NCBI GenBank assembly: GCA_902825795.1
Contig: CADECG010000002.1
Coordinates: forward strand, 15,541-79,540
Length of the DNA stretch: 64,000 nucleotides
Origin: an uncultured Bacteroidota bacterium
GTDB lineage: Bacteria > Bacteroidota > Bacteroidia > Flavobacteriales_F > PHOS-HE28
Direction of reading: 5' to 3'
Position numbers and translations under genes: made by a program. Shown piece after piece: positions 13,565-63,450 of this stretch. The notes below the pieces were generated by a model. The model saw nothing but the letters and a program-made list of their open reading frames with translations. It was not told where the DNA came from and did no database searches. Each line of letters starts with the position of its first letter. The first letter of the stretch is position 1.

Positions 13565-14299
13565 TCAGAACAGCACGCCCAAGGTCAACTCGGCGTAGTG
13601 CAGTTTGGCCTGTCCCAGATCGTCGTTGTCGAAAACGTTGGTAAACCCGTTGCTGTACTTGAGGCCAACCAGGGCTGAGGTATTCCCGCTGAAATTGTAT
13701 TCGAAACCAGCGCCCACCAGCAATGCAACGCGCAGCTCAGCCGCATTGTCCTTCGCGTCCTCATCCTCGAGCTTCACGGTTCCATCGTGGCGCACTGTCT
13801 CGTAATCCCCTTTTGCCGCCACCCGGAACCCCGTGTCGAAACCGAGCTGGCCGAAGTAGGTCATGTAGCCGATCTCGTTGGTCTTCAGCTTGATGCTGAT
13901 CGGGATCTCGACATACTGCAACTTCATGATCCCTGCCTCCGAAGCGGTACGGGTAGTGGTAATGGTGGTGGTATCGGGACCATTCACCTGCACAGTGGTC
14001 GTCGTATAGCCGTAGTCGCGGGCATATTTCAATCCCACGTTGTTCATGTATATCCCTGTCGCGAAAGCGTAGTTGGCATTCTTGCCGATCAGGAAGTCGG
14101 TCATCAAGCCGAAACGGAAACCCAATCGGGAACCATCGCTCTCAACCAGTTTTCCGGTGGGCTTGATCCAGCCGAGGTTCGGGGCGATCGACAAGCCGAG
14201 GCGCACGGAGCGACCTTCGTTCTGCGCTTGGACCGCTGAAGTCATGGCGATCGCGATGGCAAATGCCACGGATGTCTTTCTCATAGTTTTGGCGTTCAT
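13565..14299 (-). CDS. outer-membrane beta-barrel protein (porin-like, OMP_b-brl family-like)
   Basis: Signal peptide 'VAFAIAIAMTSAVQAQ'. Amphipathic beta-strands. C-terminal 'LTLGVLF' beta-signal. Confidence 0.65.
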   Translation of the reverse strand: MNAKTMRKTSVAFAIAIAMTSAVQAQNEGRSVRLGLSIAPNLGWIKPTGKLVESDGSRLGFRFGLMTDFLIGKNANYAFATGIYMNNVGLKYARDYGYTTTTVQVNGPDTTTITTTRTASEAGIMKLQYVEIPISIKLKTNEIGYMTYFGQLGFDTGFRVAAKGDYETVRHDGTVKLEDEDAKDNAAELRVALLVGAGFEYNFSGNTSALVGLKYSNGFTNVFDNDDLGQAKLHYAELTLGVLF

Positions 14300-15338
14300 G
14301 GTAGTATGGTGCGAATGTAGCCTCAGGGTTTGTCGAGCGACGGCTTCCGCGGCTCTTGTTTTCAGCTTGTTGTTGACGGCGTGCGACGGCGGAAGTCACG
14401 CGGAGATCGACCCCGTTCCTGTTGAATTGGATGTGGTGAGGCTGGACCACAAGGTGTTCCGCACACCGCCGGACAGCATGTTATGGAAGTGCCGCCAACT
14501 GCAGGCGGAACTCGGTCCCTTCTGGCAACTCTATGTGGAGGACATCCTGCAAGCCGCGGCATTGGAAGATCCGCGGCTTCCGCTCGCTCTCAACACCTTC
14601 ACCAGCGACCCGGATTGGATGGAGGCCCAAGCAGCGATCGATAGCACGCTCGGCGACCTGTCCGGTCCAATGGCGGATATGACGGATGCATTCGGAAGAC
14701 TGAAAGCTGTGTTCCCTGACAGCATTACGCCCCGGGTCATCGTGTTCAATAGTGGTTTCAATTATGGCCTCTATCCCACGGATACGGATCTGGGTATCGG
14801 CGCGGAATGGTTCATCGGGCCGGAGCAGCGTGTGATCTCGTACCTCGCTCCTGAGAGCTTTCCGCAGTTCGTGAAGGACCGCATGCGCCCCGACATGCTG
14901 GCACCCGGCGCCGTGAAAGGATGGCTCATGGTGCACTGGCTGCGCGACACACGCGGTGAAGACCTGCTGACCAACCTTGTGGAGATCGGCAAGGTGATGG
15001 CCCTATTGGAAGCCGTGATGCCCGCTACGGATGCGTCGTTGCGGTTCGCCTTCACCCCCGAGCAACTGAAGTGGTGCGAAGAGAACGAGTACATGATGTG
15101 GCAGAAAATCGTCAACGACGAACTGCTCTTCAGCAAAGAGGAAAAAGCCGTGAGCCGCATCCTCAACGACGCGCCGTTCACCAATGGATTTCCCCGTGAA
15201 AGTCCAGGTCACGTGGGGGAATGGATCGGTTACCGCCTCGTGCAAGCATACATGGCCGACAACCCGGACCTCACCTTCGCGCAGTTGTTCGCGCTCACCG
15301 ATGCGCAACAGATCCTGAAGACCTACAAACCCCGCTGA
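14298..15338 (+). CDS. gldB: gliding motility lipoprotein GldB
   Basis: Lipobox 'LLLTAC' and GldB family-like sequence over ~330 aa. Followed immediately by gldC, as in Flavobacterium. Start chosen at the ATG of the CATG shared with the divergent upstream gene. The 5' part of the track ORF (14073-14297) is antisense to the OMP gene and was rejected. Confidence 0.75.
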   Translation: MVVWCECSLRVCRATASAALVFSLLLTACDGGSHAEIDPVPVELDVVRLDHKVFRTPPDSMLWKCRQLQAELGPFWQLYVEDILQAAALEDPRLPLALNTFTSDPDWMEAQAAIDSTLGDLSGPMADMTDAFGRLKAVFPDSITPRVIVFNSGFNYGLYPTDTDLGIGAEWFIGPEQRVISYLAPESFPQFVKDRMRPDMLAPGAVKGWLMVHWLRDTRGEDLLTNLVEIGKVMALLEAVMPATDASLRFAFTPEQLKWCEENEYMMWQKIVNDELLFSKEEKAVSRILNDAPFTNGFPRESPGHVGEWIGYRLVQAYMADNPDLTFAQLFALTDAQQILKTYKPR

Positions 15339-15414
15339 TGAATATCCAATGATCAATTTCCAACGGAAAGGCCGCTGGATCGGATATTGAGTATTGGACA
15401 TTGGCTATTGAACA

Positions 15415-15756
15415 TTGATCATTCCCATGAGCACTTCCCAGATCCGCTTCACCATTACCCTCGACGAGAACAAGGTGCCCGAACGCATTGAGTGGGAGGC
15501 CGATGACGCGAGCGCGAAGAGCGAGTGCAAGAGCACGCTCATCAGTTTGTGGGACGCCAAAGAGCAGAACACCTTGCGCATCGATCTGTGGACCAAGGCC
15601 ATGACGACGGATGAGATGAAGTCGTTCTTCCACCAGAACATCTTGACCATGGCCGACACGTTCGAGCGCGCCACCGGCGAAGGCAAGATGGCAGCGCAGA
15701 TGCGTGACTTCGGCGTGTACTTCGCGGAGCACATGCTGGGTGTGAAGCCGGAATAG
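15415..15756 (+). CDS. gldC: gliding motility-associated protein GldC
   Basis: Size of ~110 aa and sequence ('IRFTITLDENKVPERIEWEADDA...LWDAKEQNTLRIDLW') fit the GldC family. Sits directly downstream of gldB. Confidence 0.75.
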   Translation: MIIPMSTSQIRFTITLDENKVPERIEWEADDASAKSECKSTLISLWDAKEQNTLRIDLWTKAMTTDEMKSFFHQNILTMADTFERATGEGKMAAQMRDFGVYFAEHMLGVKPE

Positions 15757-42195: not shown

Positions 42196-42213
42196 GTTGA
42201 ACCATACCCCCGG

Positions 42214-42251: not shown

Positions 42252-42264
42252 GAACACGTTCGGA

Positions 42265-43611
42265 TCAACGCTGCACCGATACGCGGGTGCTCCAAACGGA
42301 AGAACCGTTGCGGAGCGTCAGGGTATAGAAACCGGCGGGCATTCCGCTCACATCGATCATGCAGCGCTCGTTGGCGATCAACGCGCTACGCACTGTACGA
42401 CCGGCAACATCGCTCAAGGTGTATTCAATACGACCGCTGAGGTCCGGAGCGATCACCGTTAACCAAGCACTCGCAGGGTTCGGGAAAACACTGACCCCTG
42501 ACCCAGCAATGTCGTTGAGGCCCGTGCCCGCAGTGAAGTCGCTCAGGCCGCGCGGCTCGATCTTGCGTGCGCCGTTCGCAAAGTGCATCACGCCGGTCAC
42601 GTTGTAGAAGTTGCCCACCGTAGGCGCGTAGAGGTACATCAGGTCATCCACAGGCAGGGAGCCCTGCCAACTGGTGCCCGTCCATTCGAAGAACGTACCC
42701 GCATCGGGCAGGTTCATGCATTCCAGTTCGGCAATGTGGGTCAACACGCCCTCCCACTGCTCGGCAGCGGCGGAAGTGGCGTCCAGCATTTGGGGTGCAG
42801 GCTGCGGGTATTGACCAACCACAACCAAGTTGCTCACGTTGGTCAGCTCGGTCGTCGTGTTGAACTCCGTTACGGTCGCCGTCAACGTCACGCTGTCGCC
42901 CAATGCCACCACCGACGTATTGTCGAACACATAAATGCCGCTCCAAGGACCTGTCCCTGATTGGATGAAGTAGGAATTGGACCCTACGGTGTCCACACCG
43001 GTGACAATACCGCCCGTGTTCACCGCTTGGTTATTGAACGGCGAAACGCCGTTCAGGTCCGTTGTGTATTGGATCTCATAGATGCTCGCATCCACGGGAG
43101 GAACAATGATGCCTCCGGTGATGTTCACGTCGTCGATCACCAAATGCTCAGGGCCACTGGTCAATTGGATGGAGAGGATGAACTGTGCACCCGTTGTATC
43201 GTTCGCGGCGGTGATCTGCTGCGTTACCTGGGTCCAGGCGTTGCCCGTGGAAACGTAGTAAGGCGTGTACGATGCGTAGCCCGATGCGGCGGCACGACCA
43301 TCGAACAATCCAGTGCGCACACTGCCGTTACCGCGCACCCAATACGTTACATCGTAGGTGGTGCCATCAACTACGGTAGCCGATTGCGTGGTGAAACGCT
43401 TGTGGCCACTTACGCTGTTGGTCAAACGAACGGCATAGGTGCCTCCGTGCGGGTTGTTGCTCACTTGCGCAACGCTATCCGCGCTGAGCGTGGTCTTCGA
43501 GCCCATCCAATCGGAAGGCACGGTATCGGTCCACGTCTCGAACCCGCTCGTGAACTGTGCGCTGGCGGCGGTAGCGAGTGCAAGCAATAGAAGAAGTAGT
43601 GAAGCTCTCAT
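42265..43611 (-). CDS. secreted protein with T9SS (type A) C-terminal sorting domain and an N-terminal module resembling the substrate-binding domain of extracellular nucleases
   Basis: Signal peptide 'MRASLLLLLLALATAASAQ'. 'IYEIQYTTDLNGVSPFNNQAVNTGGIVTGV...YFIQSGTGPWSGIYVF' module. C-terminal 'GFYTLTLRNGSSVWSTRVSVQR' CTD. Confidence 0.6.
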   Translation of the reverse strand: MRASLLLLLLALATAASAQFTSGFETWTDTVPSDWMGSKTTLSADSVAQVSNNPHGGTYAVRLTNSVSGHKRFTTQSATVVDGTTYDVTYWVRGNGSVRTGLFDGRAAASGYASYTPYYVSTGNAWTQVTQQITAANDTTGAQFILSIQLTSGPEHLVIDDVNITGGIIVPPVDASIYEIQYTTDLNGVSPFNNQAVNTGGIVTGVDTVGSNSYFIQSGTGPWSGIYVFDNTSVVALGDSVTLTATVTEFNTTTELTNVSNLVVVGQYPQPAPQMLDATSAAAEQWEGVLTHIAELECMNLPDAGTFFEWTGTSWQGSLPVDDLMYLYAPTVGNFYNVTGVMHFANGARKIEPRGLSDFTAGTGLNDIAGSGVSVFPNPASAWLTVIAPDLSGRIEYTLSDVAGRTVRSALIANERCMIDVSGMPAGFYTLTLRNGSSVWSTRVSVQR

Positions 43612-43654
43612 GTGTTCTGGTATTCGTTAGGGTTGTGTGACCGGCGCCGGACGA

Positions 43655-44986
43655 TCAATTGATCTGCACGTCGTCGATACGGAAATTCGTGTCCTGGTTA
43701 TTGGGGCCGCTGCCGGTGTAGCGGAAGCCGACCACGAAGCCTCCCGTGTATCCAACGGGCAGGTATCCGCTTAGTTGAACAACACCGCTGTTCACCCAGA
43801 CGAAATCGGCCGTGCCATCGCTAGCGAAGGCGCTGGCGACCGGCACCCAGTTGGCGGTAGCGAGGTTGGTCCCATCGAAATTGGTACAGACGAAGAGCGA
43901 GAAGGGTTCATGTCCGGCATCCCCGAAAGCGCGCTGGCTCATGAACTGCAAGGTGTTGGTGCCAGTGGCCTGCACGTTCGGACTTACCAACCAGCTAACG
44001 GTCGATGGCGCTGAACTTGTGTATGCGCTGCCTTGCGCGAACAGTTCCGTTTGGAATGCCCCGCCGCGCCAAACGCGGTTGTCGGTGGAGAGCGAACCGG
44101 TGAACCAGCAGGCCAAATTGATGTTCGAATTGCTCACCACGGTAGCAAAATCCTCCTGCACAGTGGCAGCGGCAGCACATGGCTGGAAGGGAAGCGGGCA
44201 AGGGTCGCAACGAGTGCCGTTCATGTCGAGTTCGCCGAGATCGCGGATGATGAGCTGGTTGTTGCCTTGGTATTGTCCGAGGATACCGGTGAAAGTCCCG
44301 TTTCCGGTTGCTACCGGCAAACTGGCGAAATTGGCGTAGCCGCTACTGCGTACGATGATACTCCCGCTGCAATCGCTGAGGTTCCGATCGAGTGATTGTT
44401 GGCCGACCGCATCGGCATAAGGCTGCCCGTAACAAGCCTCATCCAACACGAACTCCACATCAGGGATCCGCACGAGCATGGATTGCAATGTGTCCAAACC
44501 GTAGCCGTTCAAGTGCGAGGCGTTGAGTTCGGCGATGGTCATCACCAACGGTTCCACAACGTTCAGCGTCGATTGCTTCACCACGTTATTGTCCACATCA
44601 ACGGAGTCGATCTGCAACACACCGTTGTACTGGTTAAGCGTGCAACCTGGCAGGTACACCCGTACACGATCGCCTTGGTAGAGACCACCGCTATTGCGCA
44701 ACCGCAGATTGATTGCTTGGCCACCATCCTGCATGTACACGTTCTTGTACAGATTCCCGTTCTCTTCATCAGCGGTAATGATGCCGTAAACGCTCAGGGG
44801 CTGTGTGAACCGCACTGGCAACTGGCCACTATCCCCGAACATCTGCCGCAGCTCAGGTATGGTGATCACTGCACCATCCGGTATCGACGCGATCGGCGGT
44901 GCATCGAACTCCTTGTCGCATGATGCGAAGAGTGTAACGGCGCCCAGAGCGATGCTGAGGTTGCGCAATGAAAAGAGGTTGTTCAT
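43655..44986 (-). CDS. surface lipoprotein (DUF5689-like) partnered with the upstream TonB-dependent receptor
   Basis: Lipobox 'VTLFASC'. N-terminal 'ITIPELRQMF...LSVYGIITADEENGNLYKNVYMQDGGQAINL' module similar in architecture to 42265-43611. Confidence 0.55.
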   Translation of the reverse strand: MNNLFSLRNLSIALGAVTLFASCDKEFDAPPIASIPDGAVITIPELRQMFGDSGQLPVRFTQPLSVYGIITADEENGNLYKNVYMQDGGQAINLRLRNSGGLYQGDRVRVYLPGCTLNQYNGVLQIDSVDVDNNVVKQSTLNVVEPLVMTIAELNASHLNGYGLDTLQSMLVRIPDVEFVLDEACYGQPYADAVGQQSLDRNLSDCSGSIIVRSSGYANFASLPVATGNGTFTGILGQYQGNNQLIIRDLGELDMNGTRCDPCPLPFQPCAAAATVQEDFATVVSNSNINLACWFTGSLSTDNRVWRGGAFQTELFAQGSAYTSSAPSTVSWLVSPNVQATGTNTLQFMSQRAFGDAGHEPFSLFVCTNFDGTNLATANWVPVASAFASDGTADFVWVNSGVVQLSGYLPVGYTGGFVVGFRYTGSGPNNQDTNFRIDDVQIN

Positions 44987-44989
44987 GGA

Positions 44990-47527
44990 TCAGAAGCTGA
45001 AGGTGGCCATTAGGAAGAAGGTGCGGCCGTACATGTAACCGTATTTGCTTGGGAAACGATCAACGTCCTGGCGATCAAAGCGCAATTGCTCGAACCCGCC
45101 GGTAACGAAGTCAGTGACATTGAACAGGTTGTTGACGTTGGCATTCACGGCAACGCGGTACTTGCGCTTGAGCAACCAACTCTTACCGGCGAAGACGTCC
45201 AGTACGAAGGCGCTCTCCAATTTCTCTTGCTCCAACAACGCGTTCACTTGTGGGTCCTCGTCCACGAAGATCTCCGTGGCCTCGGCAGTGCGACGCCCGG
45301 GGTTCGGATCCAGATAGATATCGTCGAAGAAGTTGCCGTTGACACCAGCGAACCAGAACTTGGGAGAGTTGTACTTCAAACCGATGCTGGCGGCAGTTTG
45401 TGGCATGCCCCCCACACGATAGTTCTTCCAGTACACGGTACGGTCGGTGGCCAGTACCTCGCTGCTATTATCGCGCGTGGCCGTTGCGGTGGGGCGGCTG
45501 CTGTACAAGTACTGGCCCTTGGCGTAAACGGCGGTAAGCGTCCATGTGGCGGTGAGATTCGCCTCCGCACCGAATTCAACACCCATGTGCGTTTGGTCCA
45601 CGCCCGTCATCGTGTAATTCACGATGGTGAGGAACTCCTCGTGGAAAAAGCTGCGGCTCCAGATCTGGTCGCTGAATTTCGTGTAGTAGGCGGTGAGGCG
45701 CCCCTTGATCCGCGGTGCTCGAAGCTGGTAGTTGATGTCCGCGCTGGTCACCTTTTCATTCGTGAGGCCGCCGATCACACCATCCTGGTTACGCGCGCTC
45801 AGATAAGCGGAGCGCGGCGCAGGTGGCCGGGTCATGTGGGCAGCGTTCACCGAAACATAGTGTCGCCCGCTCATCTTGTACACCGCACCGGCCTTGGCCC
45901 CATAGTGGAAAAAGCTGTGTGTGTCGCCTTTGCCTTTGCTGGATGTGGGGAAGCGGCCGTTGGCCACATTGCCTTCGCGGAAGAAGCTGGTGTGCGAGAC
46001 GCTCAAGCCCACGTACGCCTCGAGCTTTCGCCACTCTTTCTCCAACTGCCCGAAAGCGTTGATGCTGCTCACATGCAACTCGTAGTCGTACCCGAAGCGG
46101 TCACCTTCCCTTACAACATGGTTGGGGTTCTCAATATCGTTCTGCGCGGCGTTGGGGTCGTCTTGGTCCAATTCTGCGAACTGGTTCAAGTCAACCCAGA
46201 ACTCACCGCCCAGTAGATCCTGCACCAGTTTGTAGTTGTGCGTCACTTGGTTGTTCCAACTGGCTCCTGCGGTAATGTGCATGTCCTGCTTCCAGGCGCG
46301 GTCCCACACCGTGTTCAAACCCCAACGGGTGGGATCCGTGCGTTGCTCCTCCACAATGTATTTGCTGCGCAATCCGCTCACATTATTGCCGGCTATGCCC
46401 TCCGCATTCTCCACGGTGTAAAGATTCTTGCCGTTGGCGAAGTAGAGCTGGTCCCAATTGATCTGCCGGGTGTCGTCATCACTGCCCCAAAGGCTTGCCA
46501 GTTGTGCGGAATAGTCGCCATCGGTCTGCTCGTAATAGCTCGGCAGGTAGCGGTAATAGTCAGGACGGGGATCCTTCGCATCGAACCAGTTGAGGTTGGT
46601 GAGGCCGTCGCGACCGAACGTGTACAACGCGCTCGTGGTCACCTTTCCCTTCTCCCCCAGATCCCAATAATGAGTGAACAGGAAAACCGGTTTGTGATCA
46701 TGGCTCATGCGCGCGTTGCGCTTCTCCCCGTCCTGATAGCCCCAATTGGGATTGTAGTAGTTGTTGCCCGTGAGGTCGCACGCCTCCTGCACAGCGATGC
46801 CTTGACGGCCTTGGATGATGGGTGCACCGAAGTACACGAAGCCAAGGCTATGGCGATCGTTCAATTTCTTCTCCACGCCGAGGAAGTACGCCCAAGCGTC
46901 ATAGCTCGTCCCTTGCACATATCCTTCCTTGGCCCATCGACGGCTGCCACTTACGCTGACCGCCCAGCCGTTCGCCCGCATGCCCGTGTTGTACGTCACC
47001 ATCAGGCGATTGCGGTAGCTACGATCACTGAATGCCAAACTGGTACGCAGACCCTTGCGCAATTCGCTCGGGCGTAAGCCGATCTCCGTGTGCCCTCCCA
47101 CACTGCCGAAGGTCTGCCGCGACGCGGCAACGCCATTGTGTACCCGCATCCAGCGCGTAACATCATTCAAGCCACCCCACAGCGTCCATGGCGCAAACCC
47201 GCTTTCCATGTCGTTGATCATCACGCCGTTCAACGTGACCAACGTGTTCTCACCATCGTACCCCCGAATGCGGAAACGTGCATTCCCGAAGTTGAAGCCT
47301 GCGGTGCTGGTGAAGATGTCGCGGGAACTCTGAAGCACCCCACTGATATCCTGCGCGCCGAGCGAAGCATCCAGTTCCTGCGCATCTATCGCATACATGG
47401 GCATCCGAGCATTCGCAGTCCGGCTCGTATCCACCGGCGCATACAAAGAAGTATCCACTTGCCCGAGCACTGGCGCAGCCAGCACTGCAACAACGAGAAG
47501 TATGCTGGAACGTAAGGATCTGATCAT
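44990..47527 (-). CDS. TonB-dependent receptor
   Basis: Signal peptide. Plug ('ISGVLQSSRDIFTSTAGFNFGNARFRIRGYDGENTLVTLNGVMINDMESG'). ~700-aa barrel ending 'GRTFFLMATFSF'. Confidence 0.85.
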   Translation of the reverse strand: MIRSLRSSILLVVAVLAAPVLGQVDTSLYAPVDTSRTANARMPMYAIDAQELDASLGAQDISGVLQSSRDIFTSTAGFNFGNARFRIRGYDGENTLVTLNGVMINDMESGFAPWTLWGGLNDVTRWMRVHNGVAASRQTFGSVGGHTEIGLRPSELRKGLRTSLAFSDRSYRNRLMVTYNTGMRANGWAVSVSGSRRWAKEGYVQGTSYDAWAYFLGVEKKLNDRHSLGFVYFGAPIIQGRQGIAVQEACDLTGNNYYNPNWGYQDGEKRNARMSHDHKPVFLFTHYWDLGEKGKVTTSALYTFGRDGLTNLNWFDAKDPRPDYYRYLPSYYEQTDGDYSAQLASLWGSDDDTRQINWDQLYFANGKNLYTVENAEGIAGNNVSGLRSKYIVEEQRTDPTRWGLNTVWDRAWKQDMHITAGASWNNQVTHNYKLVQDLLGGEFWVDLNQFAELDQDDPNAAQNDIENPNHVVREGDRFGYDYELHVSSINAFGQLEKEWRKLEAYVGLSVSHTSFFREGNVANGRFPTSSKGKGDTHSFFHYGAKAGAVYKMSGRHYVSVNAAHMTRPPAPRSAYLSARNQDGVIGGLTNEKVTSADINYQLRAPRIKGRLTAYYTKFSDQIWSRSFFHEEFLTIVNYTMTGVDQTHMGVEFGAEANLTATWTLTAVYAKGQYLYSSRPTATATRDNSSEVLATDRTVYWKNYRVGGMPQTAASIGLKYNSPKFWFAGVNGNFFDDIYLDPNPGRRTAEATEIFVDEDPQVNALLEQEKLESAFVLDVFAGKSWLLKRKYRVAVNANVNNLFNVTDFVTGGFEQLRFDRQDVDRFPSKYGYMYGRTFFLMATFSF

Positions 47528-47724
47528 CGTGTGCCGGGCTTCCATGAAAGGGCGCCAAATGTAGCCTTGTCCCAACGCTGGAAACCTGATGCTACCGGCA
47601 CCGGAGCGTTAAGGCTGCATCCGTGTGATGAACAGCAAGACTTGCGTAACACTGCATGGGGGCACGTCCCACGCGCGTACCTGCGCGCGATACCTTCGAC
47701 AGCTTTTTCCGCCCCCTGACCCAC

Positions 47725-50700
47725 ATGGCCCGTTTCCACATTTGGTTGCACCGAACGCTCTTTGCGATCGGCCTGCTTTGCGTGGGGCAGTCGGCGCGCG
47801 CCGGTCACTTTGCGGGTGGTGATATCACTTACGAATGCCTCGGCGGCAATTCGTATGAGATCACGCTGGATCTCTTCCTTGATTGTTCGGGCGCCCCCAT
47901 GATCCCGCAGGATCTGGACTTCAGCAGCGATTGCGGCATATCGTTCACCGTGCTGGCCATGCCGGTACCCGCTCCAGTGGAAGTGAGCCAACTGTGTGCG
48001 GCAGAGCTACCCAACAGCTCGTGCAGTGGGGGGGCATGGCCGGGCATGGAGCACTACGTGTTCACCACGATCGTGAACCTCCCCCCGTGCAACGACTGGA
48101 ACATCAGTTGGGACTTGTGCTGTCGAGCGGGTACGCTCAACCTAACGGGCACGCCGGGCATGTACATCTACGCAAACTTGGATAACGCCACCGCGCCCTG
48201 CAACAACTCGCCGGTGTTCACCGATCAGTCCATTCCGTACGTGTGCGTTGGTCAACCTGTGAATTACAACTATGGTGTCACCGAGCCTGACGGCAACACC
48301 ATTGTGTACTCGTTGAACACCGCGTATTTCGCTGCCGGGTCTCCCGTTCCGTATCAAGTGGGATATACGGGGTTGCTACCCGCCCCGGGCATCACCATCG
48401 ACCCCGCCACGGGTCAGCTCAGTTTCACGCCAGCGTTGATCGGTAACTACGTGGTGGCTGTACTGGTTCAGGAGTTCGATGTGAACGGCGTACTGATAGG
48501 ATCGGTGATGCGCGACCAGATGTTCGTTGTGCTGGCCTGCACGGGTAACGTACCCGTGACAACAGGTATCACCGGTGTGACCGGGGGCGCGGGAACGTAC
48601 TTGGTCACCGGTACGAACTCGATCGAGGTGTGCGATGGTGCAGCCGTTTGCGTGGATGTGGTCTTCAGCGATGCCGACCCGGCCACTGTGTTGCAAGTCG
48701 TATCGCTGGCAACGACACTGCTACCCGGCGCCACTTTCACCGTTACCGGGACTAACCCGGCCACGGCGACCATTTGCTGGACAGCTGACGCGGCATTCTC
48801 ACCAGTGAACGTGCTCATTACCGCGGACGATGGCAACTGTCCGGTGGAGAACATAGCCAGTACGTCCATCAACTTCGTGGTAACCCAAGGCGGTGGAGCG
48901 GCGCCGGATCCCGGTGCCAATGGTTCCGTAACGATCTGCGGGACCGCCGCGCCAATTGACCTCTTCACTGAACTCGGCGGAACACCGGATGTCGGCGGAA
49001 GTTGGACCGCACCGGGCGGTGGCACGCATACAGGCATGTACGACCCTCTCGTGGATGGTCCGGGCATCTACACCTACGCCGTTGGAAACGCCTGTGCAAG
49101 CGCCACAGCCACTGTTACGGTAACGGAAACGGCGGGGCCGAATGCCGGTACGAACGGAACGCTGAACACCTGTACCAATAATCCAGCTTCCAGCCTTTTC
49201 GCCGCGCTCGGTGGAACACCACAAGCCGGTGGTACTTGGACAGCACCGGGTGGTGCCGCGCATGGTGCGAACTATGATCCCGCGTTTGATGGGCCGGGCA
49301 TCTACACCTATACCGTTGCGGGTGTTGCACCCTGTGGGAACGCTACTGCAACGGTCACTGTTACGGAAGTGGCGGGGCCGAATGCCGGAACGAACGGAAC
49401 CCTGACAGTGTGTGCGAATGGCGCTGCCACACCGCTCTTCGCGCAGTTGGGTGGCGCCCCACCGAACACCGGCACTTGGACGAATCCGCTCGGTGTTGCC
49501 CACGGCGTGGGCTTCAACCCGAACTACAACCCCGTTACGCACAACCCGGGCGTTTACACCTACACCGTTCCGGGTGTAGCCCCCTGCGCGGCGGCCACAT
49601 CAACAGTAACCGTAACGGAAGTACCGCTGCCAGATGCCGGAACGAATGGAACGCTCAACCTCTGCGCGAATGCATTGCCCGCGGACATGTTCGCCTCGCT
49701 TGGTGGCACGCCACAAGCAGGCGGATGGTGGACCGCACCGGGTGGTGCGGTGCATGGCGCGAACTATGATCCCGCCGTTGATGCACCTGGCATCTATGTC
49801 TATCACGTTGCCGCTCCGCCATGTGCAAGTGCTACTGCAACAGTCACCGTTACTGAGACCGCTGCCCCTAATGCAGGCACGAATGGGACTTTGACCCTGT
49901 GCTCCAATAGCGCTTCGACGAACATGTTCGCTTCGCTTGGTGGCGGACCCCAAGCAGGTGGAACATGGACCGCGCCCGGCGGTGCAGCGCACGCGGCCGC
50001 GTACAACCCGGCCGTGGATGCCCCGGGCATATACACGTATACCGTAGGTGCAGGTGGTCCCTGCGGCAGTTCATCGAGCACGGTTACGGTGACCGAGAAC
50101 CCGGCAACGAACGCGGGAACGAACGGGACGCTTACGATCTGTTCCAACAGCGTCGCGGTTGCGCTCTTTGCATCGCTCGGTGGTACGCCGCAAGCGGGTG
50201 GTGCTTGGACCGCCCCCGGTGGCGTTGCCCATGGTGCGAACTACGATCCAGCGCTTGATGCACCCGGCGTTTACACATACACAGTTACGGGAGTTGCTCC
50301 CTGTGCGAACGGTACCGCGACTGTTACGGTCACCGAGAACCCGGCAACGAATTCCGGTACCAACGGTACGCTTACGATCTGTTCAAACGGCGCCTCGGTT
50401 GCGCTCTTCGCCTCGCTCGGTGGTGCGCCACAAGGTGGTGGCGCTTGGACCGCCCCGGGCGGTGCAGCGCATGGCGCGAACTACGATCCAGCGGTCGATG
50501 CACCAGGTATCTACACATACACGGTAACAGGTGCAGCACCGTGCGCGAATGCGACAGCAACGGTAACGGTAGCGGAGAATCCAGCAACGAACGCAGGAAC
50601 GAATGGGACGCTTACGATCTGTTCCAACGGTGCTGCGGTTGCGCTTTTTGCTTCGCTCGGTGGCACGCCGCAACTGGGCGGTGCTTGGACCGCTCCGGGC

Positions 50701-53700
50701 GGTGCAGCGCACGGCATCAACTACGATCCAACCGTTGATGCACCGGGCATCTATACGTATACGGTGGCTGGTGTTGCACCATGCGCGAACGCAGTGGCAA
50801 CGGTCACCGTTACCGAGAACCCGGCAACGAATGCTGGGACAAACGGCACGCTCACGATCTGCTCGAACGGTGCTGCGGTTGCGCTCCTTGCATCGCTCGG
50901 TGGTACACCGCAAGCGGGCGGTGCATGGACCGCTCCCGGTGGCGCAGCGCACGGCGCGAACTATGATCCAGTGGTCGATGCACCGGGCATCTATACCTAC
51001 ACCGTTGCTGGAGTTGCACCATGCGCGAATGCTGCGGCAACGGTCACCGTTACCGAGAACCAGGCAACGAATGCCGGGATCAACGGCACGCTGACGATCT
51101 GTTCGAACGGTGCCGCGGTTGCGCTCTTTGCATCGCTTGGTGGTACACCACAAGTTGGTGGAACTTGGACCGCTCCCGGTGGCGCTGCACATGGCGCGAA
51201 CTATGATCCGGTTGTCGATGCACCGGGCATCTACACGTACACAGTGGTCGGTGTCGCACCATGCGCGAACGCAACCACAACGGTCACCGTTACCGAGAAC
51301 CCGGCAACGAATGCCGGGACCAATGGCACGCTCACGATCTGCTCGAACGGTGCTGCCCTCGGCCTCTTAGCCTCACTCGGCGGTACGCCACAAGTGGGTG
51401 GCACATGGACCGCCCCCGGCGGCGCAGCGCACGGTGTGAACTACGAGCCAACGGTTGATGCACCGGGCATCTACACCTACACGGTAACAGGTGTAGCGCC
51501 TTGTACCGACGCAACAGCTGCTGTCACCGTTACTGAAAATCCCGCGACGAATGCAGGTACGAACGGAACACTGACGGTCTGTTCGAACGGTGTTGCAACG
51601 GACATGTTCCTGTCGCTCGGTGGCACACCGCAGGCAGGTGGTGCGTGGACTTCGCCGGGAGGTGTTGCACATGGGGCCAACTACGTACCTGCCATGGATA
51701 CCCCGGGCATCTACACATATACCGTTGCTGGTGTCGCACCGTGTGCGAATGCCACTTCAACGGTTACGGTGACGGAAGATCCAGCACCGAACGCAGGTAC
51801 CAACGGGAACTGGAGTTTGTGCAGTTCAGGTGGGCCGGTGAGCCTCTTCGCTGCGCTTGGCGGTGCGCCACAAGCAGGAGGTACCTGGACCGCTCCCGGT
51901 GGCGTAGCGCATGGTGCCAATTACGATCCAGCAGTGGATGTACCCGGTGTGTACACATACACCCTCCTTGGCATCGCGCCCTGCGCGAACGCGACTTCCA
52001 CCGTAACTGTCACTGAGAGCATTGCATCGACAGCTGGGACGCCCGCTGTGCTGACGCTATGCTCTTCCGATGCTGCCGTCAATTTGTTCGGCCTGCTCGG
52101 CGGCGCACCGCAGGCAGGTGGCAACTGGACCGCTCCTGGTGGTGCTGCTCATGGGCCCAACTACGATCCCGCTATCGACGGTCCGGGGGTGTACACCTAC
52201 ACCATACCAGCTGCCCCACCATGTCCTGCCGTATCCGCAACGGTTACCGTAACGGAGAACTTGGCACCTAACGCTGGCCTCAACGGTGCGCTGGCGATCT
52301 GCGATAATGACCCGATCACTAACCTTTTCTTGTCCCTTGGTGGACTTCCCCAACCAGCTGGAACATGGACCGCGCCGGGAGGAGCCGCACACAGCGGGAA
52401 CTATGATCCCACGATCGACTCACCGGGTTTGTACACGTACACCATTGTCGGGATCGCCCCTTGCACGAATGCCTCGGCAACGGTAACGGTAACTGAGAAC
52501 GCGGCACCGAATGCCGGTAGCGCAGGCGCGCTGACCACTTGCGCCAACAGCGTTGCAGCGGACCTGTTCCTGTCGCTTGGCGGCGCACCCCAGGCAGGTG
52601 GCGCATGGACCGCTCCCGGCGGCGCGGCGCATGGTGCGAACTACGATCCATTGATCGATGCACCTGGTATCTACACATACACAGTAACAGGTGTTGCTCC
52701 CTGCGGCAATGCAACGGCAACGTTAACCGTAACAGAGAACGCGGCGGCCGACGCAGGCACCAACGCAACGTTGACGATCTGCTCGAACAGTGTGCCGGTC
52801 AACATGTTCCTATCACTCGGAGGAGCGCCTCAAGCCGGTGGCACATGGACCGCACCCGGCGGTGCGGCACACGGCGCGAACTATGATCCTACAGTGGATG
52901 CACCCGGCATCTATACCTACACGGTGGTCGGCATCGCGCCGTGCCTGAATGCAACGGCAACGGTCACCGTTACCGAGAATGCGCCACCCGATGCTGGCAC
53001 CAATGGGCCGCTCGCCATCTGTTCCAATTCTATTGCGGCGAACATGTTCTTGTCGCTCGGGGGTTCACCGGATATCGGTGGTGCATGGACCGCACCCGGC
53101 GGTGTAGCGCACGGCGCGAACTATGATCCAGCAGTGGATGCACCGGGCATTTACACCTATACGGTCAACGGTATTGCACCCTGCGCGAATGAAACGGCAA
53201 CGGTAACCGTTACCGAGAACACCGCTCCGAGCGCAGGTTCCAACAGCGCTGTGGTGCTCTGCGATCAAGCCGCACCATCAAACCTGTTCAACGCACTTGG
53301 CGGCGCCCCGACAGCAGGCGGCACATGGACGGCACCCGGTGGCACAGCGCACAGTGGCACGGTTGACCCAGCCGTGGATCCTGCAGGCGTGTACACCTAC
53401 GTCGTACTCGGCATGGCGCCCTGCCCGAACGCAAGTGCAACAATCACCGTCACCATCACCTCCACCCCTGATGCGGGGATCGATGGCACGTTGACGTTGT
53501 GCACGCAAAGTGCGCCAACAGCCTTGTTCGGTTCGCTCGGCGGAACCCCTGATGCCGGTGGCGTTTGGAGCGCTCCCGGTGGCGCCGCGCATAGCGGGGT
53601 GTTCGATCCAGCGACGGATCCAGCAGGTATCTACACCTATGCCATCGCCGCCGTGGCCCCTTGCCCAGGAGCAAGTGCAACCGTAACGGTATCGATCAAC

Positions 53701-56700
53701 GCAGCCCCCGATGCCGGCGCGAACGGGAATCTGAGCGTATGTACCCAAGGTGCTGCGGTCGGTATGTTCGCTTCGCTCGGTGGAAGTCCGGATGCAGGCG
53801 GCGCGTGGACCGCTCCTGGTGGCGCGGCGCACGGTGCTAACTACGATCCAGCTATTGACGCACCGGGCATCTACACATACACCGTTGCAGGTGTTCCCCC
53901 ATGCGCGAACGCAACGGCAACGATTACGGTCGCTGAAGTCGCAGTAGCGAACGCGGGTACGAATGGTGGGATCACCCTCTGTTCCAACAGCGGCGTATCG
54001 AACATGTTCCTTGCACTTGGTGGCGCGCCGCAAGGCGGCGGAACGTGGACCGCACCCGGTGGTGCAGCGCACAGCGCCAACCACGATCCTGCTATCGACG
54101 GCCCCGGCGTCTACACGTACACAGTAGCCGGAACAACGCCATGCCCGAATGCGACGGCCACGGTGACGGTGACCGAGAACGCCGCACCGAGTGCGGGGTC
54201 TGATGCTGCAATGATCGTATGCGATCAGAGCGCACCACAGTCGCTCATCGCTTTCCTCAGTGGGTTCCCACAAGCTGGTGGGAGTTGGACCGCCCCGGGA
54301 GGCGGAGCCCACAGCGGCATCATCGATCCGAGCGTTGATCCTGCGGGCGTTTACACGTACACGGTTGCCGGCTTAGCTCCGTGTACGAATGCAAGCGCAA
54401 CGGTTACTGTAACGATCACCGGTTCGCCCGATGCTGGAACGAATGGAGCATTGACACTGTGCGCGACGGGCGCACCAACATCACTCTTCGCCGCACTCGG
54501 CGGAAGCCCCGATGCAGGTGGCTCATGGACCGACCCCAATGGACTTGCACACGGGCCGAACGTTGATCCATCGGTTGATCCAAGCGGTGTGTACACCTAC
54601 ACCATCGCTGCGATCGCACCATGCCTCGGCGCGACTTCCACCGTAACGGTGACGATCAACGCATTGCCGGATCCCGGCACGAACGGCGCGCTCACCGTCT
54701 GCGATCAAGGTGCGCCGCAAGGTCTGTTCGTTGCACTGGGTGGAACACCCGCCGCTGGCGGAACATGGACCGAACCCGGCGGTGCAGCGCACAGCGGAAC
54801 GATCGATCCGACGGTTGATCCAGCCGGTGTGTACACCTACACGGTTCCGGGCGTTGCACCGTGCGCGAGTGCCAGCGCAACGGTGAACGTAACGATCACA
54901 AGTTCGCCGAATGCCGGCACCAACGGCACCTGGACATTGTGCGAGGACATGGCCCCGACAAGCCTCTTCGCCGCACTCGGTGGAAGCCCCGATGCAGGTG
55001 GCACTTGGACCGACCCCAATGGACTTGCACACGGCCCGAGCGTTGACCCGGCTGTTGATCAAAGCGGTGTGTACACCTACACCATTGCTGCGATCGCACC
55101 ATGCCTCGGCGCGACTTCCACCGTAACGGTGACGATCAACGCATTGCCGGATCCCGGCACGAACGGCGCGCTCACCGTGTGCGATCAAGGTGCGCCGCAA
55201 GGATTGTTCGCAGCACTTGGTGGAAGCCCCACTGTTGGTGGAACATGGACAGCACCCGGTGGTGCGGCACATAGCGGTACGATCGATCCGACCGTTGATC
55301 CAGCAGGCAACTACACCTACACAGTGAACGGCACGGCGCCATGCGGTAGCGCGAGCGCGACGGTGACCGTCACCATTACCAGTTCACCGAATGCCGGCAC
55401 CAACGGAACTTGGACACTTTGCGAGTCGTTCGCTCCGACGTCGCTGTTCGCCGCCCTTGGTGGAAGTCCGGATGCTGGTGGTGCGTGGACCGATCCAAAT
55501 GGTAACGCACATAGTGGCATGGTGGATCCGGCCAACGATCCGAGCGGTGCTTATACATACACCATAGGTGCAGTGCCTCCGTGCTTAGGCGATGCTTCCA
55601 CCGTGATGGTCACCATCAATCCATCGCCCGATCCCGGCATTGATGCCGCCCTCACCGTTTGCGATCAGGGCGCGCCACAATCGCTCTTCGCAGCGCTCGG
55701 TGGAAGTCCGGATGCGGGTGGTGCATGGGCCGATCCCAACGGCAACGTGCACAGTGGAACGATCGACCCCACGGTTGATCCAGCGGGCAACTACACCTAC
55801 ACGGTGAATGGTGTGGCACCTTGCGGCAGTGCGTCGTCGATCGTTGCTGTTACGATCACCGGCTCACCGGATGCGGGCACCAACGGCGCGTGGACGTTGT
55901 GCGAGGACATGGCCCCAACAAGCCTCTTCGCTGCACTCGGCGGAAACCCTGACGCTGGCGGCACTTGGACCGACCCCAATGGACTTGCGCACGGCCCGAA
56001 CGTTGACCCATCAGTTGATCCGAGCGGCGTGTACACCTATACCATCGCTGCGGTTGCCCCATGAGCGGGAGCGACCTCAACCGTGACCGTAACGATCAAC
56101 GCATCCCCGGATCCGGGCACCAACGGCGCGCTCACCGTCTGCGATCAAGGAGCACCGCAAGGGTTGTTCGCTGCCCTTGGTGGAACACCCGCCGTTGGCG
56201 GAACATGGACCGCACCCGGCGGTGCTGCCCACAGCGGAACGATGGACCCCACTGTTGATCCCGCAGGTGTGTACACGTATGCTGTTGCGGGTGTTGCGCC
56301 ATGTGCCAGTGCCAGTGCAACGGTCACCGTAACGATCACCGGTTCGCCGAATGCTGGCACAAGTGCATCACTGGCACTGTGCAGTTTGGATCCCATCACG
56401 GATCTGTTCAATGCACTCGGTGGAAGTCCGGATGCGGGTGGTACATGGACCGACCCGAACGGTCTTTCCCACAGCGGCAACATCGACCCATCAACGGATC
56501 CAGCCGGAACGTACACCTACACGGTTCCTGCCACTTCACCCTGTCTTCCCGCATCTGCTGACATCTCCGTTACTATTGAAAGTGCACCCGAGGCCGGTGT
56601 TGACGGCGCAATTGCTGTATGCACCGGCGATGCTCCGTTCGCGCTGTTCAACCTGCTGGGCGGAACGCCCGATGGCGGTGGAAGTTGGACGGATCCCAAT

Positions 56701-58563
56701 GGTGTGGCCTTTGGCTCCACCTTCGATCCAGGCGCGGACCCGCAAGGCGTCTACACCTATACGGTTGTCGGTACCGCGTGCCCGCAGGATCAGAGCATTG
56801 TGGATGTAACGGTGAACCTCGGACCGGATGCGGGACAGGACAATGCGATCGCGATGTGCACCAATGGCGCTGCGATACAACTCACCGGTGCGTTGCTCGG
56901 CACACCCGATCCGAACGGCACATGGACCGATCCCAACAGCCAGCCCTTCTCCGGAACGTTCGATCCTGCGATAGCGCTGCCCGGGGCGTACACGTACACT
57001 GTCCCCGGCAATGCGGGCTGCCCCGATGATGTAGCCGTGCTCACCATGGCCGTAAGCCCCGAAGCGCAAGCTGGCGGCAACGGTGCCATCGCGTTGTGTA
57101 CCACGGATCCAAGTATTGACCTGTTCACGTTGCTCACCGGTACACCCGATGCAGGCGGGGCATGGAGCGATCCGAACGGCACTGCCGTGGCTGCGCTGCT
57201 CGATCCGTCCACGGCGGTCAGCGGTAACTACACGTACACGGTCACCGGCCTACCACCGTGCGTAGATGCGACGGCTTCCGTGGCCGTTACGATCACACCA
57301 GCACCCGACGCAGGTGTTGATGCGAATGCGATCTACTGCGACACCGAACCGGCTGTGCAGCTCTTCTCACTACTTGGCGGAAACGCGCAGATCGGCGGCT
57401 CGTGGACCGATCCGAACGGAAACCCGGCCAACGGTGGTTTCGACCCGGCGAGCGATACACCCGGCGCATACACCTATCGCGTGGTGGGGACAGGCGCTTG
57501 CACCGACGATGAAGCGGTAGTGACCGTAAGTGTGAGCCTAGCGGCCGATGCTGGCAGCAACGGCAGCATCACCGTATGCAGCAACGATGTTCCGTTCGCG
57601 CTCTTCGCGTTGCTCGGTGGAAGTCCGGACGCCGGTGGCGTGTGGACCGCTCCTGATGGATCAGCGAACAACGGCAACGTTGATCCCGCTACCGGCCTCA
57701 ATGGCGACTACACTTATACCGTTCAATCGCCCGTGCCATGCGCCGCGCAGAGCGCAGTGGTGAACGTTACGATCATCCCGAACCTGCCGCCGGTCATCAC
57801 GGTGGACATCGGCGCAGGTTGCGCTCCGGTGATGGCCAGCATCAGCAGCAGCTACAGCGGACCGGGCACATGCCTATGGGACTTGGGCAACGGCACCACC
57901 AGCACCGAGTGCGAGCCCGATTCGATCCTTTACACAGCAGGCACGTACGACCTCACGGTAACCATCGATCCGGGTAATGGCTGCACAGGCACGTTCACCT
58001 ATCCGGCCGCTGTGCAAGTCGTGGATCCACCGATCGCTTCGTTCTATGCCTTGCCCGATACGCAAGTGAGCCTCAACAACGCGGAGATCTTCTTCGCCAA
58101 CACGAGCAGCGGCGCGGACGCATGGCTCTGGCAATTCGATTCGCTGGATGAGAGCACGGACGAGAACCCGACGTTCACCTTCCCGGAGGAGGAACCCGGC
58201 GAATACGAGGTGTGCCTGATCGCCTACGCTTCGGAAGCCTGCACCGACACGGCATGCCGCACCATTGTTGTGCAAGGCAGCGGCTATTGGGTACCGAACA
58301 CCTTCACCCCCGATGGCAACGGCCTCAACGACTTCTTCTTCCCGGTACTGGGCAATCCGCACCCCGAGGAATTCCGCTTCATGATCTTCGATCGTTGGGG
58401 CCAGCCGCTCTTCAGCACCGAGGACCCGGCCGTGTATTGGGACGGCAACTTCAGCAATGGCACCGAAGTGCCGATCGGCGTGTACGTCTGGAAACTCTGG
58501 CTGCGCGAACCCTTCACCACCGACCGCGTGGAACGCACGGGGCATGTGACGGTGGTGAGGTAA
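47725..58563 (+). CDS. giant repetitive cell-surface protein with T9SS type-B C-terminal domain (SprB-like adhesin candidate); reading frame interrupted by one in-frame TGA at 56062-56064
   Basis: Signal peptide 'MARFHIWLHRTLFAIGLLCVGQSARA'. ~390-aa Cys-rich N-domain. ~37 tandem 80-aa repeats. Two PKD-like modules. C-terminus 'GYWVPNTFTPDGNGLNDFFFPVLG...VYWDGNFSNGTEVPIGVYVW' is the 'gliding motility-associated C-terminal domain'. Track ORFs 47656-56064 and 56083-58563 share one frame. Confidence 0.7.
48900..57780 (+). repeat. coding tandem-repeat array, 240-nt period (~37 units), partly organised as near-identical 480-nt super-repeats (about 54420-56340)
   Basis: Unit starts recur every 240 nt (e.g. 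49141, 49381, 49621, 49861). Stretches of >100 nt are almost identical between 54600-54730 and 55080-55210. Confidence 0.8.
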
Positions 58564-58651: not shown

Positions 58652-59365
58652 GTGCCCGACCGCCTCGTTATCATTCCCACGTACGATGAGAAGGAGAACA
58701 TCGAGGATGTTCTGATGCGGGTGTTCGCATTGCAACCTGAGTTCCATGTGTTGGTGGTGGATGACGGAAGCCCGGATGGCACCGCGTCCATTGTGAAGGA
58801 CTTGATGGTGCGGTGGCCCGGTCGCCTGCACCTGATGGAACGCAAAGGCAAGTTGGGGTTGGGCACCGCCTACATCGCGGGCTTCAAGTGGGCGCTTGAT
58901 CGGAACTATGCGTTCATCTTCGAGATGGACGCCGACCTGAGCCACAACCCGGATGATCTTGTGCGGTTGTATAATGCTTGCGCGGTTGAAGGCGTTGGCA
59001 TGACCGTTGGCAGTCGTTACGTCCGCGGCGGCAGCGTGCGCGATTGGGCGTGGCACCGCATTGCGATCAGCTGGTTCGCATCGCTGTACGTCCGCACCAT
59101 TCTATGGCTCGGTGTCATGGATACCACGGCCGGGTTCGTGTGCTATCGGAGCATAACGCTGGCGCAGCTCGACCTTGATGCCATCAAGTTCATCGGTTAC
59201 GCCTTCCAGATCGAAATGAAGTACCGCGTGAAGCGGAAAGGTTTGCGCATCGTGGAAGTCCCGATCACCTTCATTGACCGCGTGAAGGGCAAGAGCAAGA
59301 TGAGCATGAACATCTTCAAGGAAGCGTTCATCGGTGTGATACGCATGCGCTTCACCGTGAAGTGA
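58652..59365 (+). CDS. GT2 polyprenol-phosphate glycosyltransferase (dolichyl/undecaprenyl-phosphate mannosyl/glucosyltransferase-like)
   Basis: 'IIPTYDEKENI', 'VVDDGSPDGT', 'MDADLSH' DxD motif. ~237 aa. Confidence 0.85.
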   Translation: MPDRLVIIPTYDEKENIEDVLMRVFALQPEFHVLVVDDGSPDGTASIVKDLMVRWPGRLHLMERKGKLGLGTAYIAGFKWALDRNYAFIFEMDADLSHNPDDLVRLYNACAVEGVGMTVGSRYVRGGSVRDWAWHRIAISWFASLYVRTILWLGVMDTTAGFVCYRSITLAQLDLDAIKFIGYAFQIEMKYRVKRKGLRIVEVPITFIDRVKGKSKMSMNIFKEAFIGVIRMRFTVK

Positions 59366-62217: not shown

Positions 62218-63450
62218 ATGCTCCGTCCCATCCTCCTTGCGTGCTACTCCTTGTTGGTATCGGCCAGCATCGCCCAAGACCCGGCTACCGACTTGCGCAC
62301 GCTTGAACAGCAATGGGCCGAACTGAACGATAAGCGGTCCGCACTTCAACAAAAGTTGGAGAGCGCGAAGCTTGCCGCGATCAGGGCGGACGTGCTACGC
62401 TTGGGACTACCGGCGTTGTCTCCCGGCGAACAGGTGATCTGGCATCCGGCGCATGCGCTGGTATACAGCGAAACACACGAGATCGCGAAGTGGACAGCCC
62501 ACATCGTGGTCACCGATATCGTGCAAGGGAATCTCGCGCGCATCGACACGTTCCTTATGGACAGCTTGGTACCAACAGGAAGCAGTACGGTGGAGGATTA
62601 CTGGAACAGTGGCTACGACCGTGGGCACTTGGTGGCCAGCGCTGATATGCGCTGGAGCAAACCCGCCATGGCGGGCACCTATTTGTACAGCAATGTCGCG
62701 CCGCAAAAACCGGAGCTGAACCGTGGCACGTGGGCCGATCTTGAAGATTGGATCCGCCGTTACGTGCACTACGGCAACGAACGCGCCTTCGTGCTCACCG
62801 GCCCTGTGCTGCGCGATGGCCTTCCTAAGATGAACAACCCCGGCCACAAGAACGAGGTGAGCATCCCGGAACACTACTGGAAAGTGGTTGCCGATCTGGA
62901 CGGCGATGACAAAAAGGCGATCGCATTCGTAATGACCAATGGCGTGAATGACCATCCGCCGATCAGCTATGCTGTGAGCGTAGACAGCGTTGAACGCTTG
63001 ACAGGTCTGGACTTCTTCCCCGATTTGGACGACGTTAGCGAGTCGCGTATCGAAGCCATGCGCCAACCCTCCGATTGGTACCACCAGGACGATCCGTTCT
63101 TCGGCGAGGTGGAGCCGTTGAAAGCACCGTTGGCCAAAGGCCTATACAACACTGTGCAGGCCAAGTACCATGTTGGGAAGGAAACCACCATCTGTGGTAC
63201 CGTTGTCAGCACCCGGCGCACCCAGAAGGCCAATGCCGTGTATCTGAACTTGGACCGAATGCACCCGAACCAGGATTTCTACGCCACCGTGTGGGACGTG
63301 AACGGACCCAATTTCAGCTATGATCCTGAAACTTGGCTGGTGAACAAAGTGGTGTGTATCACTGGGGTTGTTACCCTCTACGACGACATCCCCCGGATCA
63401 GCGTGAACAACGAGCACGCCATACAGCTTTGGGACGACATGGTCCGGTGA
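62218..63450 (+). CDS. secreted DNA/RNA non-specific endonuclease (Serratia-nuclease family) with extra C-terminal domain
   Basis: Signal peptide. 'GYDRGHLVASADM' catalytic DRGH motif and 'SNVAPQ' motif. ~110-aa C-terminal extension. Confidence 0.8.
   Translation: MLRPILLACYSLLVSASIAQDPATDLRTLEQQWAELNDKRSALQQKLESAKLAAIRADVLRLGLPALSPGEQVIWHPAHALVYSETHEIAKWTAHIVVTDIVQGNLARIDTFLMDSLVPTGSSTVEDYWNSGYDRGHLVASADMRWSKPAMAGTYLYSNVAPQKPELNRGTWADLEDWIRRYVHYGNERAFVLTGPVLRDGLPKMNNPGHKNEVSIPEHYWKVVADLDGDDKKAIAFVMTNGVNDHPPISYAVSVDSVERLTGLDFFPDLDDVSESRIEAMRQPSDWYHQDDPFFGEVEPLKAPLAKGLYNTVQAKYHVGKETTICGTVVSTRRTQKANAVYLNLDRMHPNQDFYATVWDVNGPNFSYDPETWLVNKVVCITGVVTLYDDIPRISVNNEHAIQLWDDMVR

Follow-up and report, generated by a model that had tools for sequence, protein, structure and literature searches.

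This study concerns a 64,000-nt window (by which we mean the whole stretch of DNA analysed, from contig CADECG010000002.1 of an uncultured Bacteroidota bacterium of the PHOS-HE28 lineage) and, within it, a giant gene on the forward strand that runs in one frame from an ATG at 47725 to a TAA at 58561–58563, comprising 3613 codons when a single in-frame TGA is read through. The locus is probably the local orthologue of a giant surface fibre found across a clade of uncultured Flavobacteriales: a type IX secretion system (T9SS) substrate with a type-B C-terminal domain (CTD), of the ‘orphan’ sort whose outer-membrane shuttle would be coded elsewhere in the genome. The protein is unexceptional within its family, which is widespread and unnamed, and it belongs to a known kind – the giant repetitive T9SS type-B surface protein – whose presence here would not surprise a specialist. 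Of use are the stop-codon correction, the definition of the repeat-unit and head families, for which curated models are lacking, and the evidence of length variation at a conserved locus. A first-pass annotation, made from the sequence alone, had proposed a gene of about 3600 amino acids (aa); the size was right, and the TGA that interrupts it at 56062–56064 had been overlooked.

In Bacteroidota, sticking, gliding and aggregation are decided by giant type-B T9SS substrates, which serve as the surface adhesins. Annotation would gain if the repeat unit and the head were defined as families, and the many fragmented calls of this gene in metagenome-assembled genomes (MAGs) would be flagged.

Architecture of the giant protein

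The gene divides into the following parts, the in-frame stop being listed in its place:

47725..47802, + strand: Sec signal peptide with start codon, aa 1–26, MARFHIWLHRTLFAIGLLCVGQSARA (sequence inspection)
47803..48900, + strand: N-terminal head, aa 27–392, tandem β-sandwich modules with 15 conserved Cys, including a cadherin-like ‘ITIDPATGQLSFTP’ segment
48901..57780, + strand: array of 37 tandem 80-aa (240-nt) immunoglobulin (Ig)-like units with two conserved Cys each
54424..56343, + strand: units 24–31, an alternating two-unit (480-nt) super-repeat that contains the stop (Tandem Repeats Finder period 480, identity matrix)
56062..56064, + strand: in-frame TGA in place of the second conserved Cys codon of unit 30 (open reading frame (ORF) list, orthologue comparison)
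57781..58290, + strand: two PKD-like modules, boundaries approximate (PKD_4, PKD and PKD_3 matches)
58291..58563, + strand: type-B T9SS C-terminal sorting domain and TAA (CHU_C PF13585, TIGR04131)

Both ends of the protein carry the marks of a type-B T9SS substrate. On inspection, the N-terminus, MARFHIWLHRTLFAIGLLCVGQSARA/GH (the slash marking the predicted signal-peptidase site), has the n–h–c layout typical of a Sec signal peptide, and the orthologous gene call in a sister species (locus L083) begins at the ATG equivalent to 47725, so that the cleavable signal peptide of the first-pass annotation stands; in the AlphaFold2 model, residues 5–20 form a low-confidence helix in this region. At the opposite end, the CTD matches CHU_C at 46.6–46.9 bits (cutoff 27) and TIGR04131 – the check that the first-pass annotation had proposed for its type-B assignment – at 35.1 bits (cutoff 35), over profile positions 3–85 of 85 and up to the last residue of the protein; the same set of C-terminal motifs closes every intact orthologue. 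The two PKD modules foreseen earlier were likewise recovered, as two stretches scoring 41.4–43.5 bits with PKD_4 (PF18911, cutoff 27), together with a PKD match (PF00801) of 27.4 bits (cutoff 23.5) and a weak PKD_3 match.

Between head and PKD modules lies an array of exactly 37 units (nt 48901–57780), where about 37, each with two conserved Cys, had been predicted. The anchor spacing is 80 residues in 32 of the 36 intervals, and 12 alignment columns, both Cys among them, are invariant across the units, whose consensus reads ...C....LF..LGG.P..GG.WT.PGG..H...YDP..D.PG.YTYT.....PC....ATVTVT.... Tandem Repeats Finder gives two periods, 240 and 480 nt. Earlier, the array had been described as two subfamilies switching near 53400, which holds approximately; the identities resolve it into three parts, namely a block of units 5–18, 21 and 22 (62–86% identical), the alternating A/B super-repeat of units 24–31 (79–86% identity among units 24, 26 and 30 and 78–85% among units 25, 27 and 31) and units 32–37, the most divergent of all. 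Units 24–31 are the part of the array that was homogenised most recently.

Neither the unit nor the head is matched by any Pfam or NCBIfam model, whether the search used the whole protein or sub-segments up to E = 10; SprB repeat, HYR, cadherin and Ig_7 models were silent on both even at E ≤ 10, and sequence searches of the PDB gave only a chance match to titin and a match to an agglutinin. The AlphaFold2 model of a unit (predicted local distance difference test score, pLDDT, 96.7) is an Ig-like β-sandwich that superposes on Ig domains, as the first-pass annotation had suspected when it suggested a structural check; each unit is probably stapled by one disulfide. A profile of the unit retrieves 4,420 cluster representatives at E ≤ 1e-3 and 2,390 at E ≤ 1e-10, with up to 31 units per protein. 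Cultured Flavobacteriaceae are among them (a Psychroserpens species, Winogradskyella psychrotolerans, Flavobacterium piscinae and Tenacibaculum discolor), as are a Chitinophagaceae MAG, Chryseosolibacter and Algoriphagus. The 80-aa unit, flagged at the outset as possibly a family of its own, is thus a distinct and common Bacteroidota repeat that lacks a curated model.

The Cys-rich N-terminal domain was also confirmed: it spans 366 residues (aa 27–392), and all 15 of its Cys are conserved columns in an alignment of 99 homologues. An AlphaFold2 model built from these 99 sequences (pLDDT 93.4) consists of Ig/cadherin-like β-sandwiches. Its fold matches do not go beyond strings of modules of the Ig, cadherin, intimin and SraP types, each over 90–130 residues; the head is best read as three β-sandwiches in tandem. 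The segment earlier called cadherin-like is so at the level of fold; no cadherin Pfam model matches it.

The head is also found on proteins of 470–940 aa with a type-A CTD (PF18962) and, in a single case (P0206, 911 aa), a head domain with 39% identity is joined to SprB repeats (PF13573) and a CHU_C CTD. Because P0206 makes this combination, the head is a shuffled module able to sit on different types of stalk. In one uncultured Flavobacteriales MAG, three tandem head-domain paralogues of 1425, 1036 and 1773 aa (L080, 5577–18574) are devoid of 80-aa units. Many other loci code for head-domain proteins of 600–1000 aa with no unit or one; proteins in this size range often had a type-A CTD (PF18962) in the protein search. 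A His residue stands at position +2 past the predicted signal-peptidase site (window 47803) in a motif, (A/G/D)H(Y/F)(S/A)G(G/A), that is conserved across homologues. We considered whether it might be the N-terminal His of a histidine brace, as in lytic polysaccharide monooxygenases, and rejected this, as the residue lies at +2 of the predicted mature end, not +1, in all homologues inspected.

Orthologues and the length of the array

An orthologue scan covering one genome per species returned 80 loci; at least 25 species representatives of Flavobacteriales proved to have the gene as a positional orthologue. Intact orthologous ORFs range from 1503 to 3930 aa and from 10 to 41 units, all with the same CTD, and wherever a long locus was examined, the gene occupies the same chromosomal position. 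To judge from their isolate names, many of these genomes are presumably MAGs from activated sludge and wastewater.

Whether the array, or at least its copy number, might be a product of assembly has to be asked of any such gene. Tandem 240-nt units are hard to assemble, and in relatives, contigs built from short reads mostly break off within the array. The units, however, are diverged, with pairwise nucleotide identities of at most 86% and a longest exact repeat of 92 nt in 8.9 kb; over the same 8.9 kb the frame is kept, with the 12 invariant residues present in every unit; and intact arrays of 10–41 units occur in independent assemblies, such as the 37 units of a 3589-aa gene in a short-read (k141) MAG (L027) and the 41 units of the 3930-aa orthologue on a 3.43-Mb contig (L083). 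An assembly artefact is therefore unlikely – we would give the idea hardly any credence – and copy number varies between species.

A different matter is the integrity of individual gene calls. At nine loci (L001, L010, L050, L051, L059, L060, L061, L064 and L069), the orthologue of the giant gene is broken into 3–11 ORFs by apparent frameshifts; from their ‘tig...’ contig names, we take these to be older long-read assemblies. The gene is intact in short-read or newer assemblies of related species. The fragments have been deposited as many ‘hypothetical proteins’ (e.g. H6597_00855–00885 and IPO56_01475–01500), and the NCBI names are ‘gliding motility-associated C-terminal domain-containing protein’ for C-terminal fragments of orthologues and ‘hypothetical protein’ for N-terminal ones. 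The fragmented calls of this family look like a systematic annotation artefact.

The in-frame TGA in unit 30

In the window, codon 2780 (nt 56062–56064) is TGA where unit 30 should have its second conserved Cys. The ORF list accordingly holds two ORFs in the same frame, 47656–56064 (2802 aa) and 56083–58563 (826 aa); signal peptide and CTD therefore lie on separate ORFs of 2802 and 826 codons, and the public protein collection has an entry for each of the two pieces, derived from an 87,105-nt NCBI contig. Presence of signal peptide and CTD on one polypeptide, as expected of a type-B substrate, is thus seen in L083 and not in the window as assembled; it would hold for the window too if the TGA were an error of base calling.

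The remaining 73 conserved Cys codons of the repeats use either TGC or TGT. In place of the window's CCA TGA GCG GGA, the sister-species sequences L001, L082 and L083 have CCA TGT CCG GGA (L001 and L083 being about 88% identical to the window in nucleotides, and L082 an L001-like contig from the Joint Genome Institute (JGI)); with TGT in three orthologous sequences, the TGA is therefore derived. Compared with the 88%-identical orthologue in L083, the gene shows purifying selection: the ratio of non-synonymous to synonymous substitution rates (dN/dS) is 0.046 in the head, 0.108 in units 24–30 and 0.081 in the region after the stop, whose 832 codons contain no additional stop or frameshift. Because these codons are otherwise intact and strongly conserved, the lesion must, on this comparison, be either recent or artefactual.

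Our searches for an independent sequence of the strain across the site returned none: one JGI contig matched, which belongs to the sister species and has TGT; a 400-aa protein search gave nothing above 81% identity; in ERR3089236, a run with flanking genes of the same strain, the Logan contig covers no more than the last 90 nt of the gene; and looking up the 2802-aa ORF as an exact product yielded no contig. Whether the TGA is a real base or a consensus error thus stands near even odds.

On the reading as a genuine pseudogene, the adhesin has only just been inactivated by a true nonsense mutation (TGT to TGA), perhaps, for instance, under selection against an exposed surface fibre. In favour of this, the TGA is present in the consensus, and the two ORF pieces were deposited as they stand; the lesion is a substitution and not an indel; ORF lengths in the flanking 22 kb match the orthologous locus, which speaks against an assembly that is error-ridden in general; and neighbouring genes use TGA as a normal stop. 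Against this, the lesion is the sole one in 10.8 kb, and beyond it dN/dS is low, with no further stops or frameshifts. Many species have the orthologue conserved and unbroken, and the one of the same type (sharing signal peptide and 90% protein cluster with L001) is in L083 an intact 3930-aa gene on the 3.43-Mb contig. Polishing errors, moreover, concentrate in repeat arrays, the older long-read MAGs of the clade show many apparent frameshifts in this very gene, and no independent sequence of the strain over the site was found. On balance, we rate a genuine pseudogene slightly below an even chance. With a real TGA, a functional fibre would not be made in this strain, and any functional inference for the strain hangs on one base.

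It could also be asked whether the TGA is decoded, as selenocysteine or by programmed read-through at a structural Cys, to yield the full-length product. It falls exactly on a conserved Cys codon, the classical position for a Cys/Sec exchange, and UGA is the leakiest of the stop codons. An Rfam scan of the whole window, on the other hand, found neither a selenocysteine insertion sequence (SECIS) nor any other Rfam family; the 75-nt stretch that surrounds and follows the TGA shows no better folding than shuffled sequences (z = +0.59); the downstream sequence matches that of orthologues that code the Cys by TGT; and TGA occurs at none of the other 73 repeat Cys codons and ends neighbouring genes. 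A bacterial selenoprotein was rejected on the first three of these grounds. With TGA a normal terminator nearby, no SECIS and no fold above shuffles, recoding of either sort is very unlikely, and the least probable of the explanations weighed here.

Genomic context, export and known systems

Three features elsewhere in the window bear on the fate of the protein:

58652..59365, + strand: family-2 glycosyltransferase (GT2), the downstream neighbour (PF00535, 96 bits)
42265..43611, − strand: secreted protein with a type-A T9SS CTD, ExeM/NucH-like (TIGR04183, 34.3 bits, cutoff 23; weak ExeM/NucH nuclease match)
14073..15756, + strand: gldB-like gene and gldC, 32 kb upstream (TIGR03514, TIGR03515)

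In long loci, the giant gene is preceded, on the opposite strand, by genes for a TonB-dependent receptor, a DUF5689 lipoprotein and a nuclease-like protein with a type-A CTD, and followed by the GT2 gene and then an amidohydrolase. The GT2 gene was found in eight of ten downstream ORFs scanned with Pfam and at 24 of 26 loci tabulated by tblastn; a functional pairing of GT2 and adhesin was nonetheless rejected, since both flanks are equally conserved, which amounts to synteny of the whole locus. The type-A CTD protein at 42265..43611 is evidence for T9SS use by the organism. Of the gldB–gldC pair reported in the first pass, gldC (15415–15756) is secure at 123.8 bits with TIGR03515 (cutoff 102), and the GldB-like ORF (14073–15338) matches the full TIGR03514 profile at 168.6 bits (E 2e-49), under the cutoff of 190; the match begins at residue 99 of the ORF, which places the true start probably near 14.37 kb.

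Several further genes may be recorded. Beside the gldB-like gene and gldC lie nadE (12702–13499, − strand) and a small outer-membrane β-barrel (13565–14299, − strand) with a weak PorT/SprT-like match of 23.5 bits, far below cutoff. A BamA-like Omp85/POTRA gene (30351–32918, − strand) directly follows uppS, for undecaprenyl-diphosphate synthase (32915–33937, − strand), and a second, shorter Omp85-family gene is found at 36713–38119 (− strand); the Omp85/uppS region is ordinary housekeeping context. Closer to the adhesin are an Exo_endo_phos_3 gene (40846–42195), a DUF5689/choice-of-anchor-J lipoprotein (43655–44986, − strand), the TonB-dependent receptor (44990–47575, − strand) and a DNA/RNA non-specific endonuclease (62218–63450). 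With the ExeM/NucH-like protein, these genes, predicted to serve the extracellular degradation or uptake of nucleic acids, surround the adhesin (40846–47575 and 62218–63450) in an arrangement kept in all orthologous loci, and the cluster may be a locus for scavenging extracellular DNA. An FG-GAP/UnbV_ASPIC repeat protein of more than 1100 aa begins at the window's right edge (63.4–64.0 kb) (gene calls L081 5545–8877 and L083 23256 onward).

Substrates with type-B CTDs are known or predicted adhesins and require a PorP/SprF-like shuttle (PMC12618676). In Flavobacterium johnsoniae, the shuttle gene lies directly downstream of nine of the 12 type-B substrates, the other three being orphans served by the unlinked shuttle Fjoh_1677, and it is the pairing of CTD and shuttle that sets whether a substrate joins the gliding machinery (SprB, Fjoh_4750) or stays static (Fjoh_3952) (PMC12618676). 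On this precedent, the Sec signal peptide would take the giant protein into the periplasm, where its type-B CTD would be recognised by the T9SS and passed to a PorP/SprF-type outer-membrane shuttle coded elsewhere in the genome; the same unlinked shuttle would then hold the fibre on the cell surface. The 37 Ig-like units, each with its putative disulfide, and the two PKD modules would form a rod of about 39 β-sandwich modules, of the order of 100–150 nm long if an Ig-like module measures about 4 nm, with the three-module Cys-rich head presented at its distal tip, where it may bind surfaces, particles or other cells. An adhesive role is what the architecture and the precedent of the family suggest.

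Several points weigh against this reading of the locus as an orphan surface fibre. As assembled, the TGA uncouples signal peptide from CTD, and, given a correct base call, this strain should secrete no product. The TIGR04131 score is barely at its cutoff (35.1 against 35). No PorP/SprF-like gene was found in the 35 window ORFs scanned with Pfam and/or NCBIfam. The head yields only generic Ig/cadherin-like fold matches, and the proposed binding at the tip is without a known partner for any member of the family.

The first-pass annotation had named the gene a candidate gliding adhesin or surface-attachment filament. The gliding reading, in which the motor would carry a SprB-type mobile fibre over the cell surface on the gliding track, can call on the CTD itself, the gldB-like gene and gldC in the window and the giant repetitive architecture; even the want of a linked PorE-like or sprF-like gene is a pattern of some ‘dynamic’ F. 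johnsoniae substrates, including the orphan Fjoh_1123 (PMC12618676). The CTD alone does not carry the conclusion, however, for type-B CTDs also serve static adhesins such as Fjoh_3952, the fate depending on the CTD–shuttle pair (PMC12618676). Nor were SprB repeats or an operon context of the sprC/sprD/sprF kind detected, and gliding has never been observed for this uncultured clade. We regard a mobile gliding adhesin as doubtful, and prefer to speak of an orphan surface fibre. A bolder conjecture, to which we assign a distinctly smaller chance still, is that an entire uncultured clade of Flavobacteriales, lacking a SprB-type adhesin, has this length-variable, positionally conserved orphan fibre as its main adhesin for motility or attachment, that the number of repeats tunes the reach of the tip and that the TGA is a segregating loss-of-fibre variant.

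How, then, does the giant protein compare with known systems? With SprB of F. johnsoniae it shares the giant repetitive build, the signal peptide, a CTD of the TIGR04131/CHU_C type, gld genes in the genome and, presumably, the form of a long surface filament; we take SprB to have roughly 6,500 aa, about twice the length of the giant protein. It differs in its head and in its 80-aa disulfide-type Ig unit, which is unrelated to the SprB repeat (PF13573; no match at E ≤ 0.01 in the whole protein, nor at E ≤ 10 on sub-segments), and also in lacking both sprF immediately downstream and the sprC/sprD context. The earlier epithet ‘SprB-like’ therefore fits size and CTD type, and fails for the repeat and for the sprF/porP-like gene expected next door, whose place is taken by the GT2 gene; no PorP/SprF-like or PorE-like gene adjoins the giant gene here or in the orthologous loci. 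By analogy, the protein would work like SprB and other type-B adhesins, without being a member of the SprB family.

RemA, which had been cited alongside SprB as a carrier of the type-B CTD, in fact combines a lectin domain with a type-A CTD (PMC12618676); the giant protein, with its type-B CTD, has no match to a lectin or to the type-A CTD models (PF18962/TIGR04183). Likeness to GhpA, the grappling hook of Aureispira (PDB 9flp), is limited to a fold match no better than that to generic eukaryotic Ig domains, with no match in sequence, and heptameric hooks or predation of the GhpA kind were set aside, there being no evidence for them here beyond this generic match. Ig_7 (PF19081, ‘Ig-like domain CHU_C associated’) and PKD are, like the present unit, β-sandwich modules that accompany CTDs of the CHU_C type; in proteins that have both, however, Ig_7 covers other segments than the 80-aa unit, and it has no match to the window protein. 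[quoted passage not shown]

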